Of a stretch of DNA of 64,000 bases, positions 7,330 through 27,574 are shown piece by piece. The DNA is taken from positions 14,141 to 78,140 of the forward strand of contig JAAYHH010000011.1 in the NCBI GenBank assembly GCA_012735435.1, written 5' to 3'. Below the pieces are notes generated by a model, which worked only from the letters and a program-made list of their open reading frames with translations, had not been told where the DNA came from and did no database searches. Every line of letters starts with the position of its first letter. Positions within the stretch are counted from its first letter, which is position 1. The DNA comes from Bacillota bacterium. GTDB lineage: Bacteria > Bacillota > Limnochordia > DTU087. Made by a program: the position numbers and the translations under genes.

Positions 7330-7980
7330 CTATAGCTGTCTTCCGATCTTAGCCTTAATCCGGCAAAGGGCATTATCAATAGACTTGGTATGGGTACCCA
7401 GCTCTTCGGCCATCTCTTTGTAAGATAACCCGTTGATGTAAAGCTTGAAAACTCTGTACTCAAAATCACTGAGGACTTCTTTTATGTAGCGCTGAGTATG
7501 CTGAAGCCTTTCCCGATCGATAACCAGCGCTTCTGGATCATCTACCCTGTTGTTGGAGAGCACCTCCATCAGGGTTCGGTCTCCCTCGGCATCATAAATG
7601 GGTTTGTGTAAAGATGTGTACGAGTTAAGGGGGATATGCTTCTGCCTGGTAGTGCCCTTGATGGCACTGATAATATTGCGGGTGATGCACAGCTTGGCGA
7701 AGGACCAGAAAGATGAGGAACCTGGAGTAAAATCACGGATTGCCTTGTACAGCCCGATCATCCCTTCTTGCAAGAGATCATCATCCTCAGCTCCCTGCAA
7801 GAAGTAGGGTCGGGTCCATATGTAGACTAACTTCTGATACTTGTACAACAAGTAATCAACTGCATCTTGACGACCAGCCTGGGCTTGCTTCACGATGTCT
7901 TCATCAGGCAAATCCCGGAAGGCCTTGAACCCATCGAAATGATAGTTGAGCGGCAATGCACTACCCATGGACATGACCAC
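7330..7980 (-). CDS. sigH: RNA polymerase sigma factor SigH (Spo0H)-like
   Basis: 216 aa; strong similarity to B. subtilis SigH (YLLYKYQ, LQEGMIGLYKAIRDF, TRQKHIPLNSYTSL.KPIYD..DRTL, SIDNALCRIKAKI). Confidence 0.8.
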   Translation of the reverse strand: MVMSMGSALPLNYHFDGFKAFRDLPDEDIVKQAQAGRQDAVDYLLYKYQKLVYIWTRPYFLQGAEDDDLLQEGMIGLYKAIRDFTPGSSSFWSFAKLCITRNIISAIKGTTRQKHIPLNSYTSLHKPIYDAEGDRTLMEVLSNNRVDDPEALVIDRERLQHTQRYIKEVLSDFEYRVFKLYINGLSYKEMAEELGTHTKSIDNALCRIKAKIGRQL

Positions 7981-8185: not shown

Positions 8186-8569
8186 TTAGGTGGCTTGTGG
8201 ACTCTTCACCATCCCTTGCTTTATCACTCCCCTCTTTACCTCAGAGGAGTCGGTATCCTTGGCCTTAAAGTGCTCGAGCATGTAGTTCAGCGCATTCCAG
8301 GGATCAACTGTATCCCCGCAGGTGAATACGTCAATGGCAGCATACTCGTATTCCGGCCACGTATGAATAGCAAGGTGGGATTCAGAGATCACCACAACAC
8401 CACTTACTCCTTGGGGCGCAAATTTGTGAAATGCAACTTCCCGCACTTCCGCCCCAGCGTGCAGCGCCGCCTGTACCATGATGTTTTCGACCTGATCTCT
8501 GTCGTCCAATACCTTAGGATCACATCCATATGCTTCGCACAGGACGTGACGACCCAAAGCATTTTTCAT
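8186..8569 (-). CDS. speH: S-adenosylmethionine decarboxylase proenzyme (class 1, pyruvoyl)
   Basis: 127 aa; processing and active-site motif VISESHLAIHTWPE. Confidence 0.9.
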   Translation of the reverse strand: MKNALGRHVLCEAYGCDPKVLDDRDQVENIMVQAALHAGAEVREVAFHKFAPQGVSGVVVISESHLAIHTWPEYEYAAIDVFTCGDTVDPWNALNYMLEHFKAKDTDSSEVKRGVIKQGMVKSPQAT

Positions 8570-8692: not shown

Positions 8693-9940
8693 TTATGCAG
8701 ACCCTTCGGTTTTTGACACAAGGGATTCCACTACATGCCGAAGAGCCAGCTCTACATGTTCTTTACACAGCCCTCCCTGCAGGTACGCTATATAGGGAGC
8801 CCGCAGCGGCCCATCAGCACTTAATTCTATGGAAGAGCCCTGAATGAAAGTACCCCCAGCCATAATGACGGGGTCTTCATAACCAGGCATATCCCCCGGC
8901 ACCGGCTGAACAAAGCTGTCTACAGGAGAGGCTGCCTGAATGCCCTGACAAAAGGTCAGCAGTGCTTCCTTTGTTGACATCTCCACAGCTTGAACAATAT
9001 CCCCTCTCGGCTCATTCCATCGGGGAGAAACGGGATACCCAAGATCTTCCATGACCTTTGCCGCAAGAACGGCTCCGGCAAGTGCCTCACCCACCACGTG
9101 GGGTGCCATCCACAATCCCTGCAGGATCCAGCGATTTAGCCCAAAGGTTGGTCCCAGCTTGCCCCCTAATCCCGGAGCTGTCATTCGATCAGCGACAGCC
9201 TCGAGGAGATGGGCACTACCAACTACATAGCCGCCCCCCGCCACTAGACCCCCGCCAGGATTTTTGATCAGAGAACCAGCTATTAGGTCCGCTCCCACGT
9301 GGCACGGCTCCTGGGTTTCGACAAATTCTCCGTAGCAATTATCGACGAAGATGATAGTCTTGGGGCTGATTTCTCTCACCAGGGAAACAATAGCTCCGAT
9401 TTCATCAATACTTAGGGCTGGGCGCCAGCTGTAACCCCGGGAGCGCTGAATTAGCGCCATTTTGGTTCCAGGGCTGACAGCAGCCAAAATTCCCTCTTTA
9501 CTCCATCTGCCCTCCTCATCCAGCGGTACCTCTCTATAGGAAATGCCCTGGCACACTAAACTTCGGGGCAAATCACCTTTTATGCCGATGACCTGCTGCA
9601 GGGTATCATAGGGGGCTCCAGTGAGGGAGATTAGCTCATCCCCCGGCTCCAACAAAGCCGCGAGGCAAGTGGCTATGGCGTGGGTTCCAGAAACCAGCTG
9701 AGGTCGAACCAGGGCAGCTTCTCCGCCAAAGATCTGGGCATATATAGACTCAATAGTTTCACGGCCGCTGTCGTTATAGCCGTAGCCGGTGCTGCCGGCA
9801 AAATGATACTCACTCACATGATGGTCTTGAAATGCCGCCAGTACCCGGGCTTGGTTGACCAGCTTAATCCTTTCGATCTCATCCCATTTGGGTCTAACGG
9901 CTGTCTTAGCTTCATGAATCAACTGCTGAACTGATTGCAT
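8693..9940 (-). CDS. PLP-dependent C-S lyase family protein (aluminium-resistance/YnbB-like, Met gamma-lyase fold)
   Basis: 415 aa; YnbB-family N-terminus (HVSEYHFAGSTGYGYND.GRE) and fold-type I PLP-enzyme layout. Confidence 0.7.
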   Translation of the reverse strand: MQSVQQLIHEAKTAVRPKWDEIERIKLVNQARVLAAFQDHHVSEYHFAGSTGYGYNDSGRETIESIYAQIFGGEAALVRPQLVSGTHAIATCLAALLEPGDELISLTGAPYDTLQQVIGIKGDLPRSLVCQGISYREVPLDEEGRWSKEGILAAVSPGTKMALIQRSRGYSWRPALSIDEIGAIVSLVREISPKTIIFVDNCYGEFVETQEPCHVGADLIAGSLIKNPGGGLVAGGGYVVGSAHLLEAVADRMTAPGLGGKLGPTFGLNRWILQGLWMAPHVVGEALAGAVLAAKVMEDLGYPVSPRWNEPRGDIVQAVEMSTKEALLTFCQGIQAASPVDSFVQPVPGDMPGYEDPVIMAGGTFIQGSSIELSADGPLRAPYIAYLQGGLCKEHVELALRHVVESLVSKTEGSA

Positions 9941-10072: not shown

Positions 10073-11239
10073 TTAAGAAAAGCGAATGCCGGCATCTTTA
10101 AGCCGCTTCAATGCTGCTTCAATCCTTTCCTTCTCGACACAAAGGGATATGCGGATATACCCCTCGCCATACTCACCATACCCATTTCCTGGTGTGACTA
10201 CAACTCCCGTCTTTTCCAAAAGCTCGGCGGCAAACTGTGTGGAGGTATATCCCTTGGGAACAGGGGCCCATACGTATATGGTACCCTTAGGTTTTTCGAT
10301 CTTCCAGCCTAGTTCCTGCAGACCCTCCACCATGAGATCCCGCCGCTCCCTGTAGACCTCTCTCATAACGTCTACAGAATCCTGGGGTCCACGTAAGGCC
10401 TCTATACCTGCCAGTTGGACAGCAGAAAAAACTCCAGAGTCGATATTGCCCTTAACCCTGGCTAAAGCTTCAATGACTTCTGCATTTCCGGCGGCCCAGC
10501 CCAGCCGCCAGCCGGTCATATTGTAGGTCTTGGAAAGGGAATGGAATTCGATGCCGACTTCCTTGGCACCATCGATCTCAAGAAAACTTAAGGGACGATA
10601 GCCGTCGAAGGCTACTTCGCTGTAAGCGGCATCATGACAGACGATGATATCATACTCCCGAGCGAAGGCAACGACATCTTCGTAAAACTCCCTGGGGGCC
10701 ACTGCTCCAGTGGGATTGTTGGGGTAATTGAGAAACATCAGCTTCGCCTGTTTGGCTATATCGGCGGGAATGGCATCAAGGTCCGGCAGGAATCCGTTCC
10801 GTTCCAAAAGGGGCATCTTATAGCTCCTGCCCCCGGCAAACAAGGTACCGGTGTTGTAAGCGGGATAACCGGGATCGGGAACTAAGTTAATATCCCCGGG
10901 ATCCACATAGCACAGGGAAATATGGGCTAGTCCCTCTTTGGAACCAATTAAGGCCACAATCTCAGAAACCGGGTCAAGTTCTACTCCCCGCCCTTCCCGA
11001 TACCAATCGGCTACCGCCTCCCGAAAAGCAAGCATCCCCTCATAGGTGGGATAGCGGTGGGTCCATGGTTCTTCTACCGCCGACTGCAGTCTCTTGATAA
11101 TGTGGGAAGGAGTTGGCCGATCGGGATCGCCTATTCCAAAGTTGATAATATCAACCCCGGCGGCCTTAGCCTTGGCAATCTTTTTGTCTATCTCAGCGAA
11201 CAAATACGGTGGCAGTTGTTGAATACGTTTAGCAGTTTG
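10073..11239 (-). CDS. dapL: LL-diaminopimelate aminotransferase (DapL-type class I aminotransferase)
   Basis: motifs [34 protein letters not shown]; probable start at [15 protein letters not shown]; the ORF extends to 11329. Confidence 0.75.
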
Positions 11240-11344
11240 CATCGAACCCGCGGCCAAGCCAAACGCCAGCTGTTCCTTCACCTTTAGTGAGGAAGGCAGG
11301 ATCGGCCGCCTCCACGCCTCCTTTATCAATTCAGTTGTATACTT

Positions 11345-11701
11345 TCAGGGCATAGAAAAAGCTCCCATAAGCAGATTCAATACTTGCCGGAAACATCCTG
11401 CAACTACAGGCCCAAATTCACCGCCTTGAGCTCCAGCTGTCCCATCTTCACTAACTGCTTCCAGGCTGCTATCGTGGTAAACATCGGGAGCACAGTCGGG
11501 CGTCTCTTGATCATGGTCGCTGCCGGCTGCAAGGGATCGGGAATCACAGATGGGACAGCAGCCCTCCTCAAGGCTTCGCCGCCTGGCATCCAAAAGGCCG
11601 TAGGCCATCCCTGCCTGAAACCCCTGGGCAAGTCCCAGCCGGCGGCCCGCCGCAAAACCAGCCAGTATACTCACAAGAATGATCAGTACTATCTTAATCA
11701 C
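11345..11701 (-). CDS. small Cys-rich membrane protein
   Basis: 118 aa; N-terminal TM helix, motifs GCCPICDS, PDCAPD, AGCF; start overlaps the upstream gene by 8 nt. Confidence 0.45.
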   Translation of the reverse strand: MIKIVLIILVSILAGFAAGRRLGLAQGFQAGMAYGLLDARRRSLEEGCCPICDSRSLAAGSDHDQETPDCAPDVYHDSSLEAVSEDGTAGAQGGEFGPVVAGCFRQVLNLLMGAFSMP

Positions 11702-12308
11702 CGGTTTGACCTCCCGTTCCTGCTCCCGATTCCTGGATGATTACAACCACCAGGCTGCCCAATAACACCAGCACCAACTTGAGCAGATCTAAATAGGCCG
11801 AGACAGCGACTGCCAACGCGGCTGCTAGGGCAGTTTCGACTACTCCCCACTTAACAGCCCAATTGCCGGCGCCGGTCAGCCGATCCTCCCGCCGATCCCG
11901 CAGATCATCGATGGCCTGTAAAGCAAAAATTGCTGTCCAAGAGGTCAGCATTTCCTGCCAGTCAAAAAAGAGGAAGGCAAGCAGTCCCAAAATTAAAGCC
12001 TCCTGCCATCCTGTCAGACCCAAGCTCAACGGTCGGGTTAAGTCCCCTCGCATTCCCATGGTATAACTAGCCCAGAAAAGGGTTACAGACCAAACCGGGT
12101 GAGCGGCGGCCCCGAGGCTTAAGGCCGCAAGGGCATAGGGTAAAGCACCTTCTTCAAGTTCAGCGGCCCAAGTCCTCTTGCCTATCATTTGATCGAAGGG
12201 AGCATCTAGATAATCATCCATCAGTTTGACAGCGGTGCCGGTAAAAAAACAGGCCAGGGCCGAGCGGATGAGGGAAAGCATGGGAAGGTCAAAGATGGCG
12301 CCAGACAA
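11694..12308 (-). CDS. integral membrane protein, uncharacterised
   Basis: 204 aa, multiple hydrophobic helices; start overlaps the GTPase gene end by 20 nt. Confidence 0.5.
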   Translation of the reverse strand: MSGAIFDLPMLSLIRSALACFFTGTAVKLMDDYLDAPFDQMIGKRTWAAELEEGALPYALAALSLGAAAHPVWSVTLFWASYTMGMRGDLTRPLSLGLTGWQEALILGLLAFLFFDWQEMLTSWTAIFALQAIDDLRDRREDRLTGAGNWAVKWGVVETALAAALAVAVSAYLDLLKLVLVLLGSLVVVIIQESGAGTGGQTGD

Positions 12309-12897
12309 ATTGTTTCACCTCGGCAAAGCCGGTTTTAAGCAGTGCAGAAATTGGGAGAATTACATGTCCGGGAAACTCCCGGCGAATCTGAACTAAACCG
12401 GCGGCGGCTTCTGGCAGGTCCATTTTGTTGGCGAGAATAGCATATCCTGTCCGCATACCGCCGAATTGAGCAACTTGCCAGTCCACGGGTCCCACAGCCT
12501 CCACTGCGCCCTCCTTACCGACGCTGCTGGCATCAATCAAGTGCAGGATGACGGCAGCTTCCCGAACTTGGGCCAGGGTCTGGGCCATGGCCCGCCTGAC
12601 CATTGATTCTTCGGGAATGCCGTCGGTGAGGCCGCTGGTATCCAGTAGGGCAAAGCGCTTTTTGCCCTTAAGTCCCGGCATCTGAATCTCCAAGCGCTGT
12701 AAACCTAAGGTATGGTGGGGATTTGGACTGGTAAGTTCCTCTACGGCCTCCTTTTGAGTTAAGGTTCGGCGATATGTTTCCCCGTTGGGGGTGGTGAAAT
12801 CTATATCGAGCCGGGAGACCCCGAGGTAGCCGGCAAAGTTGACGGCAAAAAGGGTCTTGCCCACATTAGCTTTGCCGATGATCATGCAAGCTTTCAA
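12289..12897 (-). CDS. small P-loop GTPase (TRAFAC-class G domain only)
   Basis: G1 GKANVGKT, G3 DTSG, G4 NKMD; 202 aa; 2-nt gap from the spoVK stop. Confidence 0.7.
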   Translation of the reverse strand: MKACMIIGKANVGKTLFAVNFAGYLGVSRLDIDFTTPNGETYRRTLTQKEAVEELTSPNPHHTLGLQRLEIQMPGLKGKKRFALLDTSGLTDGIPEESMVRRAMAQTLAQVREAAVILHLIDASSVGKEGAVEAVGPVDWQVAQFGGMRTGYAILANKMDLPEAAAGLVQIRREFPGHVILPISALLKTGFAEVKQFVWRHL

Positions 12898-12899
12898 GC

Positions 12900-13865
12900 T
12901 TACAATCCCTCCCCGAAATCCTCCGCTTCTATATACATCAGGTCTTCCCGGGTCACTTCGCCTGGCTTCTGCACCAACCGGACGGCCTGCCGGCGAATAG
13001 CCAGCTCAATCCAGTTGCGGACGGTGCGGGCATTACCGAAGGTATATGAATCATTACGCAAACCCCTCTGAATCAAAAGGGCCAGCCGCCGGCGCGCTCC
13101 TTCACTCAATCGGTATTGGCGTTTTTCGAGCATCAATTCTGCGATGGCAAGGAGCTCCTGGGCATTGTAATCAGGAAAATCTATATGGATAGGAAACCGA
13201 GACCGCAAACCGGGATTGCTCTGGAGGAAAAAGTTCATTTCCTCGGTGTATCCCGCCAGGATGAGGATGAACTCCTGCTTGTGGTCCTCCATAGCTTTGA
13301 CCAAGGTGTCTATGGCTTCCTTGCCAAAATCCTTTTCGCCGCCCCGGGCAAGGGAGTATGCCTCATCGATAAACAAAATGCCGCCCAGAGCCTTCCTAAT
13401 CTGTTCCCGGGTTTTCTGGGCAGTATGCCCGATATATTCCCCCACTAGGTCTGCCCGTTCCACCTCCACCAGGTGTCCCCTAGGCAGGACTCCCATATGG
13501 CGAAACATGCGGCCTAAAATTCTAGCTACGGTAGTCTTGCCGGTACCGGGATTTCCCCGGAAGATGGTATGGAGAACCAGCGGCTCGGTAACCAGCCGTT
13601 CTTCTGTCCGCCGCTTTTGAATCTGTACAAAGGCTTGAATCTCCCTAACAAGCTGCTTGACCTCTGTTAGGCCGATTAGCCCATCTAATTCAGCCAATAC
13701 ATCCTTTAGCTTCTCCTGGGTTTCCTTAGGCTGGCTGTTTGCAATTTCAACCCGCTCTCCTATAGTTCGAAAAAGGGCAAAGGCTTCGGCCGGCGAAACC
13801 CTGCCCTCCTCCAGCCAGTCCAGGACTTCTTCCACTGTCATCGGGGCTAAATTGCGGTTATGCAT
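12900..13865 (-). CDS. spoVK: stage V sporulation protein K (AAA+ ATPase, SpoVK/CbbX family)
   Basis: Walker A GNPGTGKTTVARILG, Walker B ILFIDEAYSL, SpoVK-type motif KEAIDTLVKAMEDHK..ILAGY. Confidence 0.85.
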   Translation of the reverse strand: MHNRNLAPMTVEEVLDWLEEGRVSPAEAFALFRTIGERVEIANSQPKETQEKLKDVLAELDGLIGLTEVKQLVREIQAFVQIQKRRTEERLVTEPLVLHTIFRGNPGTGKTTVARILGRMFRHMGVLPRGHLVEVERADLVGEYIGHTAQKTREQIRKALGGILFIDEAYSLARGGEKDFGKEAIDTLVKAMEDHKQEFILILAGYTEEMNFFLQSNPGLRSRFPIHIDFPDYNAQELLAIAELMLEKRQYRLSEGARRRLALLIQRGLRNDSYTFGNARTVRNWIELAIRRQAVRLVQKPGEVTREDLMYIEAEDFGEGL

Positions 13866-14011
13866 CCTCCCACCCCACGGATGCTGTGTTTTCGGTGCCT
13901 TATCATATATATGTAAATAGGCTTGTAAATGTGTTGATGATTAGGCATAAAAAAAGAAAAGAGCTCCTTCTGCAGCTCCTTTCTTTACAAAACAAAAGAG
14001 TTACGTGGGCT

Positions 14012-14251
14012 TTACTCTCCATTTGAAGGGGTGGCTAGAGTGAAGGGCTTTTGAGGTGTAATCGTTGAAATAGCGTGCTTATAAATCAAGTCATTTCTTC
14101 CGTCGCTTTCCAGCAGTACAGTAAAATTGTCGAAGGCCCGAATAAGTCCCCGCAGCTGCACTCCATTAATCAGATAGATGATGACTGGAATATGTTCCTT
14201 ACGAATCTGATTGAGATAGAAATCCTGCAATCCAATCGCTGTTTTTGCCAT
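14012..14251 (-). CDS. hfq: RNA chaperone Hfq
   Basis: Sm1/Sm2 motifs [36 protein letters not shown] and YKHAISTI; RBS GAGGAG 6 nt before the ATG at 14251; the ORF-track start 14335 is an upstream extension. Confidence 0.95.
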
Positions 14252-14313
14252 ACATGCTCCTCCTAATGCTGCCCGACTGCCGTTGATACACCCCCATGCA
14301 TTCGTATTTCCTT

Positions 14314-15249
14314 TCATATGTGAAAATTCCTCCAATAAATGGACACAATCTTGTGTACTGCGTCACGAATATTTAATCGGTCGAGGTCCAGCCATACGAT
14401 TTCCTTGTCCCGCCGGAACCAGGTTAGCTGGCGCTTGGCGTAGCGGCGGGTATCCCGCTTAAGGAGGCGAACAGCCTCCTCCAAATCATACTCTCCCCGC
14501 AGGTAGCCCACCAACTCCTTGTAGCCTAGGGCCTGCATGGCTGTGGAATCATCACTTAGGCCCTGCTGTAAAAGGCCCCTTACCTCATCCAACAGTCCAG
14601 CCTCCATCATGAGATCGACCCTGGCGTTGATGCGCTCATAGAGCCTGGCCCGATTGCGAATGAGTCCAAACTTCACCGATCTATGCCTGGGTCCCCGCTC
14701 CCTTTGCATCTTAAGGTGCTGGGAAAGGGCCTGACCTGTGGAATAGAATACTTCCAGGGCCCTGATAATCCGGCGGCGGTCATTGGGATGAAGCCTCCGG
14801 GCTGTTTCTGGATCCACCTGGGCTAGCTGCGCATGGAGCGCTTTGTTGCCCTTAATATCCGCCATCTCCTCCAACCTAGCCCGGAGCTCCGGATCCTTTC
14901 CTTCGGGGCTAAACACAAATCCCTGCAAGACAGCTTGAATGTAAAGCCCAGTACCCCCAGTCAAGATGGGAGTCTTGTCCCTTTTGGCCAGGTCTGCAAG
15001 AACTTCCTCCACCATGGCCTGGTAATCAGCGACGCTGAACTCATCTTGAGGATCAACTACGTCCAACAGGTGGTGGGGGATCCCCTGGCGTTCCTCTTCT
15101 GTGGGCTTGGCCGTGCCGATATCCAAGCCTCGATAAACCTGCATTGAATCGGCGGAGATAATCTCTCCATCTACCTCTTTTGCTACCTCAATGGCCAGCT
15201 CCGTCTTGCCTACTGCTGTAGGTCCTACAATTACCAATATGGGGCGCAT
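14314..15249 (-). CDS. miaA: tRNA dimethylallyltransferase MiaA
   Basis: P-loop [26 protein letters not shown]; start at MRPILVIVG. Confidence 0.95.
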
Positions 15250-15277
15250 GCCCTTCACTCCCACTGTCGTAATTGAT

Positions 15278-17116
15278 TTAGCGCCTGCCGAACCGCCGAT
15301 GAATATCATCTAGTGCCAGCCGCACTATCACAGGCCTGCCGTGGGGGCAAGTAAAGGGGTTCTTGGTATTTAAGAGGCTGTCGATCAGGTCTTGCATCGA
15401 TGTCGGTGATAGTTTTTCACCGGCCTTGACAGCTCCTTTGCAGGCCATGAGAATTAAGGCATTCTCCCGATAATCATTAGTCTCTCCCTTAGTGATAACT
15501 CCCAACAACAGCTCTTCCAGGTCCTTTGCTCCTATCCCGGAAAGTTGAGCAGGAACCGAACGGACCAGGCAGTCCTTTGAGCCGAACTCCTCAACCTCAA
15601 AGCCCAGCTCCTCTAGCCTAGACGACCATTCCAAGATAGCCGCTGCCGCCGCTGGTCCCAGCTCCAAGTGGATTGGTACAAGGAGGGGCTGGGTCTTAAT
15701 GCGGCTTGTCTCTAGTTCTCCTAGAAAACGTTCATAAAGGATCCGCTCATGGGCTGTGTGCTGATCGATCAGCCATAATTCCTTTTCTGCTTCAACCAAG
15801 ATATATGTTGCCTGAAACTGTCCCAGGATCCGGTGGAATGTGTGCTTAGGAGCAAGGCCAGTGTCGGCATTACCACGATGGGAAGGTGCGGCATCTGGTG
15901 TGGAAACCTTTCGCTTGCTCTCAGTGGTGATGGTGACATCACTAGAGGGCAGCCTGCAGCCAGCTTCGATCCCGGCTGCCTTCTTCGGCCGTACCGGGGG
16001 AATCACCGGGATTGCTCTTCTTTCCAGTGAAGGAGAAGGCGCATCCATGGTCTCCTGCACAAAGCTCGGCTTCCCGGCAGGTTCCGTAGTCTCATCCTGC
16101 CGGGGAAAGGCCCAGGGCTCAAAGGGTGTCGTTGCTTCCAGGGCCTGCTTTACAGCCAGCAGCACCTGCCGGTATACTTCGCTGCTCTCACTTAAGCGGA
16201 TCTCCCGCTTGGTGGGATGTACATTGACATCGACCCTGCTTGGCTCTATGGTCAGTGCCAGCACTCCGATGGGAAAACGGCGCCGGGGAAGCAGGGTTTG
16301 GTAGCCCTTTTCCATGGCACTGGCAAGCAGGGGGCTTTCAACGACCCGCCCGTTGACAAGGAATGTCTGTGCCTGCCTATTGCCCCGGTGAATTTCCGGT
16401 TTGCAAATATATCCGCTGATGGTGAGATAGCCGCTCTCCCGGTAAACAGGAACTAGATGTTTGCCGATGCGGGAGCCGTAAATACTCCACATTACCGCCT
16501 CCATGTTGCCGTCACCCGGCGTAACAAAGATCTCTTCCCCATCAGATACCAATCGAAAGCGGACATTGGGATTAGCTAAGGCCAATCGTCCCACAATATC
16601 AAAGACGTAGCGCCGCTCGCTGGCTGCTTGATTGAGGAATTTATAGCGGGCAGGAGTATTGAAAAAAAGCCTCTGTACAGTAACTGCTGTGCCAATGGGC
16701 GCCCCTACACTCTCCAGACGGATCCTTCTGCCGCCTGAGAAGGCGATCAGTGTTCCCATGGGAGCTTCTTGGGTTCTAGTTACCATCTCCAACTCCGACA
16801 CAGCCGCGATGCTGGGCAGTGCTTCACCCCGAAAGCCCAAGGTGACAATCCTAAAGAGGTCATCGGCTGAGCGGATCTTGCTGGTGGCGTGGCGTTCAAA
16901 GGCCAGGGGTACTTCTTCCGGCGGGATGCCGTGGCCGTTGTCTACGATCCTCAGATACTCCTTACCGCCCTCTCGGATTTCAATATCGATACTGGTGGCT
17001 CCAGCATCCAGGGAGTTTTCCACAATTTCCTTGACAACCGAGGCCGGCCTTTCTACAACTTCGCCGGCGGCGATCTTGTTGGCAGTATTCTCTTCCAAAA
17101 CTATAATTGGAGTCAT
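15278..17116 (-). CDS. mutL: DNA mismatch repair protein MutL
   Basis: GHKL ATPase N-terminus (KIAAGEVVERPASVVKEIVENSLDAGA, DNGHGI); C-terminal dimerisation/endonuclease region. Confidence 0.95.
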   Translation of the reverse strand: MTPIIVLEENTANKIAAGEVVERPASVVKEIVENSLDAGATSIDIEIREGGKEYLRIVDNGHGIPPEEVPLAFERHATSKIRSADDLFRIVTLGFRGEALPSIAAVSELEMVTRTQEAPMGTLIAFSGGRRIRLESVGAPIGTAVTVQRLFFNTPARYKFLNQAASERRYVFDIVGRLALANPNVRFRLVSDGEEIFVTPGDGNMEAVMWSIYGSRIGKHLVPVYRESGYLTISGYICKPEIHRGNRQAQTFLVNGRVVESPLLASAMEKGYQTLLPRRRFPIGVLALTIEPSRVDVNVHPTKREIRLSESSEVYRQVLLAVKQALEATTPFEPWAFPRQDETTEPAGKPSFVQETMDAPSPSLERRAIPVIPPVRPKKAAGIEAGCRLPSSDVTITTESKRKVSTPDAAPSHRGNADTGLAPKHTFHRILGQFQATYILVEAEKELWLIDQHTAHERILYERFLGELETSRIKTQPLLVPIHLELGPAAAAAILEWSSRLEELGFEVEEFGSKDCLVRSVPAQLSGIGAKDLEELLLGVITKGETNDYRENALILMACKGAVKAGEKLSPTSMQDLIDSLLNTKNPFTCPHGRPVIVRLALDDIHRRFGRR

Positions 17117-26017: not shown

Positions 26018-27574
26018 TTAGTTTACAAACCCGATAATCAACGCCAGTACCGCTGCAATGGTTGCGATATTGGCGGCACTCTTAAGACTCTGATTCTGCT
26101 TCTCAGCATGGGTTCGGTAGCTGTCAAACTCATCCCGCAGCTCCTGCAGCTGCCGCTCCAGCCGCTGTTCCCGCATTAGGGCTGCATTGATCTGGGCAGA
26201 TGATTGTGTAATCACCCGCTCATCAACGGCTGCCAGGGCAGACTCTGTGGCGCTTACCCGCTCCTGCAGTATAGAAACAGCTGCCTGCAGCTCTTCAACG
26301 TAATCCTGCAGATCTGCAAGATCCTTGCTGTCAGCTGCTGCACCCTGCTGCAAGATATTGGTCCTCTTGTCTAAGGCAGCGATCTTCTGAGAAATATTTA
26401 CAAGGTCTGTCTGGACTGCCTCCAAACTCCTAACCAGGTCTTGACGCAGACCGCTGACATCCTTCATCAATTGCCCATCCGCGGCAGCCATAGCTTCTCC
26501 CTGTTTCAAGACTTGATCCTGGAGCGCCTGCACATCTTCGGCAAGTGCAGCCGTCTCCTCAGAGCGGGCAAGTCTTTCCTCCGCTACAGCCTGCTGCAGC
26601 TGTCCAATTTCAGCGGTTAGCTGATCATCCCTCTGGGCGGATTCTTCTTGCCAGCTGCTCAGCTCTTGCTCCATTTGGACAAGCTGCTGGACAACCTCAG
26701 ACAGGCCCTTTTCCACCCGACTGATCTCTTCTGCCAGTTCAGCATCGGCCTCTTGCATGGCGTTCTGCAGTAAGCTTAAAGCCGCATCCCGTTCCGCAAA
26801 GCTGCTCTGGACCTTTACACCCAAAGCCTCCTCCAGCGCTACTAGTGAGTCAGTGTGGAGTGCCAGCATCCGGGTGTGCTCATCTAACCTTGCTTCATTG
26901 GCTTCAACAGCGGCCTCGGTATCGGCCAGGGCTGCTGCCTGTTTGACAAGCTCATCCTCAAGGGCTTGAAGCTTACGGCCCTGGTCAGCAGCCTGCTGCC
27001 TAAGGTCTGCATCAGCAGCTTCGAGGCGCCGGGTGGTATCGGCAACCTGCTGCTGGAGGGCGGCAATTTCCGCCAATATGGCTGCTGCCTGCTCCTGTAT
27101 AGAGGTGCGGATAGCTGCATCTTCCTGCTCCATTGTGTCGATGACCTTAGTCACAGTCTCATCCATTACCTGAACACGACGCTGGGTTTCGGTAACGGAA
27201 GCTGACAGCTCTTCCCTTTGATTATACCACCGTACAAGTTCATCCCTAAACTCGGTAGAAAGTGTCCGGAGCAGTTCCAAATCCTCCTGAGTTACACCCA
27301 GCTGCCCTTTTTCGATGTCCACTAGGAGCCGGCCAACTACTGAAGCCAGCGTATACCTATCGACAGGTCTCTGACCTTGAAAAGTTCCATCGGTATAGAG
27401 AGCAAGATAACCTTCCTGGACTAACTTTTGAACACCCTCATAGGCCCAATGGTCTGCAGGCACATCGCTGATCTGCTGTGCAGTCTGCTGGGCAAAAACA
27501 AGATTCCCCTGACCTACCAACAGCAGCAAAAACAGTAGTACAACTCCTATTCTTCGAATTGTCCTCGACTCCAT
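26018..27574 (-). CDS. SLH-domain protein with long coiled-coil and C-terminal membrane anchor
   Basis: signal peptide; SLH motif DVPADHWAYEGVQKLVQEGYLALYTDGTFQGQRPVDRYTLASVVGRLL; ~380 aa of Q/A/E/L-rich heptad-like sequence; C-terminal hydrophobic helix NIATIAAVLALIIGFVN. Confidence 0.7.
   Translation of the reverse strand: MESRTIRRIGVVLLFLLLLVGQGNLVFAQQTAQQISDVPADHWAYEGVQKLVQEGYLALYTDGTFQGQRPVDRYTLASVVGRLLVDIEKGQLGVTQEDLELLRTLSTEFRDELVRWYNQREELSASVTETQRRVQVMDETVTKVIDTMEQEDAAIRTSIQEQAAAILAEIAALQQQVADTTRRLEAADADLRQQAADQGRKLQALEDELVKQAAALADTEAAVEANEARLDEHTRMLALHTDSLVALEEALGVKVQSSFAERDAALSLLQNAMQEADAELAEEISRVEKGLSEVVQQLVQMEQELSSWQEESAQRDDQLTAEIGQLQQAVAEERLARSEETAALAEDVQALQDQVLKQGEAMAAADGQLMKDVSGLRQDLVRSLEAVQTDLVNISQKIAALDKRTNILQQGAAADSKDLADLQDYVEELQAAVSILQERVSATESALAAVDERVITQSSAQINAALMREQRLERQLQELRDEFDSYRTHAEKQNQSLKSAANIATIAAVLALIIGFVN

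Follow-up and report, generated by a model that had tools for sequence, protein, structure and literature searches.

Organization of the spoVK locus

The window studied here is a 64,000-nt stretch of DNA from a Limnochordia genome of the Bacillota (GCA_012735435.1; contig JAAYHH010000011.1, positions 14,141 to 78,140), and it carries on its minus strand a cassette of four genes headed by the sporulation gene spoVK. This first gene (12900..13865) encodes a 321-aa AAA+ ATPase. It is followed by genes for a 202-aa stand-alone G-domain GTPase of a new family, recognized by Pfam MMR_HSR1 and the G1-G5 motifs (12289..12897), for a polytopic membrane protein of 204 aa and about 7 helices, called here mini UbiA-like from its Asp-rich motifs and AlphaFold model (11694..12308), and for a 118-aa single-pass protein with an N-terminal transmembrane (TM) helix, a G-x3-G repeat, a CPIC sequence and a variable tail (11345..11701).

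The four open reading frames (ORFs) and the spacings described in the initial annotation were confirmed at these coordinates. The spoVK stop at 12900 and the TTG start of the GTPase gene at 12897 leave a gap of 2 nt, the GTPase stop (12289) and the TTG start of the membrane-protein gene (12308) produce an overlap of 20 nt, and the membrane-protein stop (11694) and the GTG start of the small gene (11701) overlap by 8 nt. Sequences resembling Shine-Dalgarno sites sit 7-10 nt 5' of the starts of the GTPase (GGAGG), membrane-protein (GAGGTG) and small-protein (GGAGG) genes. In contig L001, which is 77% identical, independent gene calls gave the same 2-nt gap and 20-nt overlap, and the third junction is also an overlap of 8 nt. 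An intrinsic-terminator-like hairpin (13953..13986, minus strand; a 13-pair stem and then a T run), kept in close relatives, lies 3' of hfq and sets this gene apart from the spoVK operon, while a promoter-like stretch, AACACATTTACAAGCCTATTTACATATATATGAT, is found 5' of spoVK (~13895..13935, minus strand).

Conservation of the four-gene cassette

All four window proteins have conserved homologues. The initial annotation had taken the genes for one translationally coupled operon and had named the absence of the three downstream genes (hereafter, the trio) beside spoVK in related genomes as a result that would speak against their association. In the neighborhood comparison, the trio adjoins spoVK in related and in distant genomes. 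Exact protein look-up returned six neighborhoods, including that of Thermaerobacter litoralis, in which the order of AAA+, GTPase, membrane protein and small ORF is kept and the flanks vary (mutSL-hfq, transposases, NadA/MFS, GerA and a divergent hflX, among others). With an alignment of 10 GTPase sequences as the query, a single genome of each GTDB species was scanned, which yielded 51 loci with a true family member (L008-L058); the loci L059-L087 were left out, being unrelated Der/Era-type GTPases. In 42 of the 51, profiles of the four proteins located all four genes next to each other, in order and on the same strand. The other 9 comprise two with the trio 4.3 kb from spoVK, two with spoVK and the GTPase only, and five with spoVK fragmentary or undetected.

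The scan recovered Limnochordia metagenome-assembled genomes (MAGs), six Alicyclobacillus species, Effusibacillus consociatus, Tepidanaerobacter acetatoxydans and relatives, a Peptococcaceae MAG and Candidatus Acetocimmeria. The cassette, with its order and nearly the same junctions, recurs in about 50 species-level loci and spans, in isolates and MAGs, three classes of Firmicutes, including Alicyclobacillaceae (Bacilli) and several lineages of Clostridia. Limnochorda pilosa and T. acetatoxydans are counted as spore-formers by Galperin and colleagues (10.1101/2022.02.25.481979).

The geometry of the junctions was measured in 58 loci, the one between spoVK and the GTPase gene being measurable in 49. 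There, the spacing is -4 nt in 25 loci and +2 nt in 9 (34 of 49). The GTPase and membrane-protein genes overlap by the same 20 nt as in the window in 42 of 58 loci, and the spacing between the membrane-protein and small-protein genes is mostly -1 to -17 nt, most commonly -4. These spacings are kept between proteins that are 30-50% identical, which argues for selection on coupled translation. An ORF with the signature of the small protein was found 3' of the membrane-protein gene in every complete cassette. The two genes are always gained or lost as a pair, the GTPase gene being the one that stays with spoVK. The proposal of a single coupled operon holds, with its junctions kept across divergent loci, a terminator after hfq and a promoter-like site before spoVK: spoVK heads a translationally coupled four-gene operon, which many spore-forming Firmicutes inherit as a unit.

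The trio appears to be inserted between spoVK and hflX within an ancestral hfq - spoVK - hflX - ynbB neighborhood. In Alicyclobacillus and others, an ORF for a putative HflX-like GTPase of about 430 aa, with a weak match to the GTPase profile, follows the small gene, at the position that hflX has in loci devoid of the cassette. Thermaerobacter has a full-length gene with Pfam HflX domains, divergent and upstream of the cassette. The short GTPase does not stand in for HflX.

Some loci deserve a comment of their own. In Alicyclobacillus mengziensis (L049, 4459-5004) and A. tengchongensis (L055, 4525-4989), only a partial spoVK ORF (~180 bits) precedes an intact trio, and it could be the product of a frameshift or a pseudogene. 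The contig of L056 (3721-6971), one of the two loci where spoVK is accompanied by the GTPase gene alone, bears the label 'Lutibacter sp. B2', which is a name from the Bacteroidota. Its hfq - spoVK - GTPase - ynbB block is low in GC and of a kind typical of Firmicutes. This bin is probably mislabelled or contaminated.

SpoVK and its N-terminal domain

The AAA+ protein of the window scores 412.2 bits on the SpoVK model TIGR02881, against 280 for CbbX and 238 for EccA. This is 11 bits below the equivalog cut-off of TIGR02881 (422.95 bits). Cassette-type SpoVKs score 403-425 bits, cassette-less ones of the clostridial type 401-413, and those of the Bacillus type up to 445; the AAA+ cores with and without the cassette thus have similar scores on this model. 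The shortfall is general to SpoVKs outside Bacillus, and we have treated the window protein as a SpoVK orthologue for this reason. Its Walker A and B motifs are GNPGTGKT and FIDEAY. The signatures of the SpoVK clade are GY at sensor 1, two Arg fingers, and an Asn located four residues ahead of the first of them (PMC11513918). In the translation we read AGY, the N-x3-R arrangement in NPGLRSRF, and GNARTVRN, which fits the pattern GNARxVRN. The synteny also agrees, with hfq upstream of spoVK and ynbB downstream. The AAA+ core is orthologous to that of B. subtilis SpoVK, and both the clade signatures and the neighborhood (hfq upstream, hflX/ynbB downstream) are alike. On the other hand, spoVK is the first of four genes here, while in B. 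subtilis it is reportedly monocistronic, as Foulger and Errington are said to have described in 1991.

The N-terminal domain (NTD) sets the two proteins apart. In B. subtilis it is short, formed by three beta-strands and a helix, and needed for function (PMC11513918). The window SpoVK does not have this beta-rich NTD and contains instead a putative helical motif, EEVLDWLEEGRVSPAEAF; the beta-strand-rich type of Bacillus, MKNNGQISVVINSQKK..., is found in L094 and L096, neither of which matches the profile of the cassette-type NTD. The helical NTD of the window covers residues 9-32, MTVEEVLDWLEEGRVSPAEAFALF (13770..13841, minus strand). SpoVKs that precede the GTPase share the motif E-E-[IV]-L-x3-E-x-G-x-[IV]-x-P-x-E-A, with one invariant Gly.

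When metagenomes were scanned with the SpoVK alignment, most matches were AAA+ paralogues and not orthologues (~300 bits, long ORFs), which left ten usable orthologues (L088-L097). The two with the cassette (L090 and L091) carry the helical motif, as does L092, and the seven cassette-less SpoVKs carry other NTDs. The NTD profile, which was built from the positives, matches each of the 49 SpoVKs whose gene lies ahead of that of a family GTPase (42 of them with >=8 bits) and none of the seven SpoVK orthologues without one, which form the whole negative set. The NTD of Alicyclobacillaceae, members of the Bacilli, groups with those of Limnochordia and Clostridia and not with the Bacillus type. The type of NTD tracks the cassette. 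In L092 (908-1576), the helical-NTD SpoVK is followed by a degenerate GTPase of the family (G3 DTAA, G4 SKAD) with no membrane pair, which may represent a stage of cassette decay.

The GTPase

The only Pfam match of the GTPase is MMR_HSR1 (PF01926; 35.9 bits, with a cut-off of 21.9). Its motifs in the window are GKANVGKT (G1), PHHT (G2), DTSG (G3), NKMD (G4) and SAL (G5). Across the family, GxxNxGKT is conserved at G1, T63 in PHxT, DTxG followed by Leu at G3, NKxD at G4 and SA at G5, and R101, H119 and D122 are invariant. We found 253 homologues, nearly all of about 202 aa and, in MAGs, named just 'GTPase' or 'HSR1'; an exhaustive search gave 212 clusters at 50% identity, all of about 200 aa. 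The gene is always located beside spoVK or the membrane pair.

The AlphaFold model (predicted local distance difference test score, pLDDT, 88) is Ras-like in its core, to which a beta-hairpin and a helix (residues ~29-55) are added between G1 and switch I/G2. Among solved structures, its fold is closest to the G domains of Era, FeoB, MnmE, Der and HflX (template modelling scores, TM-scores, of 0.60-0.65), and in sequence profiles Der, Obg and TrmE lead, ahead of HflX. HflX is the best match in NCBIfam, albeit a weak one (30.2 bits against a TIGR03156 cut-off of 216.75, over the G domain only), and the scores for Era (22 against 237 bits) and Der (28 against 307) are similarly distant from their cut-offs. 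The protein is far below the equivalog cut-offs of HflX, Der, Obg and Era, and the chain ends right after the G domain. It has in common with the Era/Der(EngA)/MnmE/FeoB/HflX group (TRAFAC) the G1-G5 set, the P-loop Asn, a hydrophobic residue after the DxxG glycine and the fold. Unlike these proteins, it stands alone, without a KH, HflX-N, second G or membrane domain, and has its own insert. It represents a discrete new family of Era/Der/MnmE-like G domains. A P-loop Asn and a hydrophobic residue after G3 are marks of K+-dependent GTPases activated by dimerization. Given these two features, the enzyme is probably activated by K+ and dimerization and not by a GTPase-activating protein.

The mini UbiA-like membrane protein

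Two Asp-rich motifs characterize the membrane protein, DDYLDAPFD..KRT (motif 1) and DDLRDRREDRLTGAGNWAVKWG (motif 2). The UbiA pattern of NDxxDxxxD, and of DxxxD followed by G..[ST/N]xA, is matched by DDYLDAPFD and DDLRDRREDRLTGAGNWA. D31, D32, D35, Y58, G85, M86, E103, D134 and D138 are invariant in the family, D39 and D135 being nearly so, and the consensus clusters DDYLDxxxD..KRT and DDLxDxxxDxxxGxxNxAxxxG correspond to the first and second Asp-rich motifs of UbiA. The match to the UbiA family PF01040 is below the cut-off (21.2 against 34.2 bits) and restricted to residues 123-187, in the second half of the protein; a few homologues carry a precomputed match to this family. The best profile match in PDB is digeranylgeranylglyceryl phosphate (DGGGP) synthase, at motif 2, with E = 0.02.

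The AlphaFold model (pLDDT 88; predicted template modelling score, pTM, 0.84) contains about 7 helices, with both motifs at helix ends that are followed by short helices, and its nearest structural neighbors are isoprenoid-diphosphate enzymes. According to the positive-inside rule, the Lys/Arg-rich loops that bear the motifs, and both motifs with them, should be cytoplasmic and the N-terminus outside. UbiA, MenA and DGGGP synthase have in common with this protein the two Asp-rich motifs with UbiA spacing and flanks, their predicted location at cytoplasmic helix ends and the short cap helices. The window protein is smaller, with about 200 aa and 7 helices, apparently lacking two of the nine helices of UbiA. 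Enzymes of the UbiA superfamily include polyprenyl-phosphate transferases of envelope synthesis.

The small CPxC protein

The small protein contains a G-x3-G repeat, GRRLGLAQGFQAGMAYG, then the stretch LLDARRRSLEEG, and finally CPIC and a variable tail. The consensus of 53 non-identical sequences is a hydrophobic helix followed by GYxxGRRxGxxEGxxxGxaxaPLxLRxxxlExgxCPxC and a variable tail. Given the Arg pair that follows the helix, the repeat and the CPxC motif are predicted to be cytoplasmic. The initial annotation called this protein Cys-rich, which was overstated: the window copy has five Cys, while one CPxC pair is all that is conserved across the family. Weak, sub-threshold matches of Yae1_N and FliH to the G-x3-G repeat were found. 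Yae1/Lto1 and FliH share with it a run of five Gly at four-residue spacing, located here just after the membrane anchor. Unlike them, it is membrane-anchored and has the CPxC motif, and matches below the threshold are no evidence of homology.

Promoter sequences

The promoter-like stretch of the window, conserved in L008-L012 and L023, fits the mother-cell sigma-E/sigma-K type (AC-N17-CATA...) and equally the sigma-70 type (TTTACA-16-TATGAT). The pattern AC-N15-18-C[AG]TANNNT[AG], which resembles sigma-K and sigma-E promoters, precedes spoVK in 22 of 43 loci, where shuffled sequences would predict 1.1, and in none on the reverse strand. The window's own site narrowly misses this strict pattern. 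Its assignment to any sigma factor is putative. Perfect CATAnnnTA boxes occur in Alicyclobacillaceae and Tepidanaerobacter, and TATAAT is present in several loci. Taken together, the motifs suggest that the operon is expressed during sporulation. The spoVK gene of B. subtilis is driven by sigma-E and sigma-K promoters (PMC517825).

Neighboring genes

On the same strand, upstream of the hairpin, are mutL (17116..15278), miaA (15309..14314) and hfq (14335..14012). Downstream of the cassette are genes for an LL-diaminopimelate aminotransferase (10073..11329) and a YnbB-type Met_gamma_lyase protein (9940..8693), and speD (8569..8186), also on the minus strand. We found no terminator between the small-protein gene and the aminotransferase gene, which likely starts at an ATG about 100 nt downstream, and transcription may read through from one into the other. 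Diaminopimelate-pathway genes lie 3' of the cassette in two contexts, the LL-diaminopimelate aminotransferase in the window and L001 and a diaminopimelate epimerase in L004 (6842-7732). This may be due to chance or be a tie to peptidoglycan or dipicolinate supply.

A gene for a SigH-type sporulation sigma factor (7330..7980, minus strand) is located 3.4 kb from the operon. Farther away (26018..27574, minus strand) is the gene for a 518-aa protein with an S-layer homology (SLH) domain at its N-terminus, where it also weakly matches the model of a cyanobacterial 'iron uptake porin'. The protein may tether the outer membrane as OmpM does, a role in keeping with a Limnochordia genome of the diderm kind.

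Possible function of the module

We tentatively suggest that the operon encodes a GTP-regulated, polyprenyl-diphosphate-binding membrane platform on which SpoVK docks during spore-envelope synthesis. The products of the trio would form a complex on the cytoplasmic face of the membrane. In this complex, the two invariant Asp-rich motifs of the mini UbiA-like protein would bind Mg2+ and the head group of a polyprenyl (di)phosphate, most plausibly an undecaprenyl-linked envelope precursor. The small protein, with its TM helix, G-x3-G repeat and CPxC motif, would be the obligate partner and scaffold of the mini UbiA-like protein, and the Era-like GTPase would act as the switch. SpoVK would dock through its cassette-specific helical NTD, and its hexamer, now at the membrane, would act on an enzyme that makes lipid-linked peptidoglycan precursors, by analogy with the SpoVK of B. 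subtilis, which promotes MurG. In lineages such as Bacillus and Clostridium, the trio would have been lost and SpoVK would have received a different NTD. The protein-protein contacts, the ligand and the time of expression are the parts of this scheme that we infer.

Several observations weigh against this platform. In L029 (700-4995) and L037 (707-5001), about 4.3 kb separate spoVK from the trio, occupied by genes for an ABC-F ATPase and a major facilitator superfamily (MFS) transporter, the latter oppositely oriented in L029. In L035, the trio has no spoVK in the preceding 3.4 kb of the contig, where PntB, two DUF1538 genes and a P-II-like gene are found. The detachment in these three loci indicates that the trio is not strictly dependent on spoVK in cis. 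Conversely, L054 and L056 keep spoVK and the GTPase gene without the two membrane-protein genes, and in L056 ynbB comes directly after the GTPase gene. The association with spoVK put forward in the initial annotation is a strong linkage, as shown above, and not an obligatory one, as these five loci demonstrate. In addition, the promoter stretch of the window has 10 of 12 matches to the sigma-70 consensus, and the correlation between NTD and GTPase, with 7 negatives, could reflect shared descent rather than function.

The main alternative is that the trio works on its own as a membrane enzyme system, a small prenyltransferase or polyprenyl-phosphate transferase under the control of the GTPase, making a spore-specific lipid or lipid-linked sugar and sharing the spoVK promoter for timing, with no physical link to SpoVK. 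The trios detached from spoVK (L029, L037 and L035) would agree with this, each having its own CATA-type element upstream, of a -10-like kind in L029 and L037, and so would the Asp-rich motifs, whose invariance is expected for a catalytic site, and the established presence of polyprenyl-phosphate transferases of envelope synthesis in the UbiA superfamily. However, a body of about 200 aa and 7 helices, apparently without two of the nine UbiA helices, speaks against an autonomous enzyme. The spacing of -4 or +2 nt between spoVK and the GTPase gene in 34 of 49 loci and the covariation of the SpoVK NTD with the GTPase also weigh against it, and the retention of spoVK and GTPase without the membrane proteins in L054 and L056 ties the GTPase to SpoVK and not to the enzyme. 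We regard this alternative as possible, though rather unlikely.

It is improbable that the GTPase and the membrane protein constitute a FeoB-like, GTP-gated transporter of divalent metals used in sporulation, with the acidic residues lining an ion path instead of forming a diphosphate site. In fold, the GTPase matches the G domains of FeoB about as well as any others, and the invariant residues of the membrane protein are mostly acidic. Nevertheless, the acidic clusters fit the UbiA patterns [ND]DxxDxxxD..KRT and DDxxDxxxDxxxGxxNxA and are placed at helix ends, not mid-membrane, and the structural neighbors are isoprenoid enzymes, not transporters. The remaining point in favor of a transporter comes from L035 (3411-4556), where the G domain and the mini UbiA-like domain are read as a single ORF of 381 aa. 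This fusion is either real or the result of a one-base assembly error in the 20-nt overlap. It is suspect since, in the predicted topology, the membrane protein has its N-terminus on the outer side. We have also down-weighted it as Rosetta-stone evidence of an interaction, as it clashes with that topology and a single lost base would yield it.

Another idea, that the short GTPase is a decayed or duplicated G domain of HflX with a ribosome-related role, found here since hflX is the ancestral neighbor of spoVK, has a very low probability. The gene sits where hflX does in the cassette-less loci L089, L093 and L096, and HflX is its best, weak NCBIfam match (30 bits). On the other hand, Der, Obg and TrmE match better by profile, the 212 clusters of about 200 aa form a discrete family with its own insert and motifs, and the stop of the gene overlaps the membrane-protein gene by a conserved 20 nt. 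The idea was rejected because HflX co-occurs with the cassette, full-length HflX-like genes adjoining it.

Finally, it could be suspected that the genes adjoin by chance, or were miscalled, in a single MAG, since the closest proteins come from MAGs and three of the four starts are non-ATG. This is refuted by the recurrence of the four genes, their order and their overlaps in isolates and MAGs of three classes, and has a negligible probability. A role as a defense system was also considered and rejected, since the three downstream proteins have no match to PADLOC models and the AAA+ protein has only generic weak ones.

Novelty and significance

The module was proposed in the initial annotation as undescribed, and searches with hidden Markov models agree, giving no specific Pfam, NCBIfam or PADLOC family for the three downstream proteins. 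A full-text literature search for spoVK paired with hflX or with prenyltransferase found nothing. A search for spoVK with GTPase, operon and sporulation retrieved the SpoVK/MurG paper with its preprint and, besides these, only one phage paper on another subject, and covered neither the 'select operonic arrangements' of Fig. 3A nor the supplements of PMC11513918. In the SpoVK/MurG paper and its preprint, 'GTPase' occurs in the reference list only, for work on SpoIVA. The four-gene SpoVK operon is apparently undescribed. The role of SpoVK itself was called poorly defined in the initial annotation, a view that is outdated: the B. subtilis protein, an AAA+ ATPase of the SpoVK/CbbX/EccA clade, promotes the activity of MurG at the forespore surface (PMC11513918).

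For the targeting of SpoVK to the forespore surface and for its regulation, the module would offer testable partners, namely a dedicated GTPase, a membrane protein that bears the hallmarks of binding polyprenyl diphosphates, and a small anchor protein. It is accompanied by a matching change in the NTD, the substrate- or partner-binding domain of SpoVK, and together they point to the part that the membrane and lipid carriers have in making the spore envelope. In addition, the module defines three protein families unnamed in current curated libraries, and indicates that Bacillus is a reduced case and not the general one. The finding is of interest to researchers of sporulation and of the cell envelope, although the mechanism is conjectural.

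A broader version of the platform proposal is more doubtful, and we consider it unlikely as a whole. The four-gene operon would be the ancestral SpoVK system, in which a GTP-switched platform sensing undecaprenyl-(di)phosphate recruits the SpoVK hexamer, through the helical NTD, to the synthesis of spore-cortex precursors, and Bacillus and Clostridium would have later lost the platform and evolved a new NTD with other localization cues. If this is true, the trio would reveal how SpoVK finds the membrane and its client, and would represent a new minimal class of polyprenyl-binding membrane proteins under a dedicated small GTPase.

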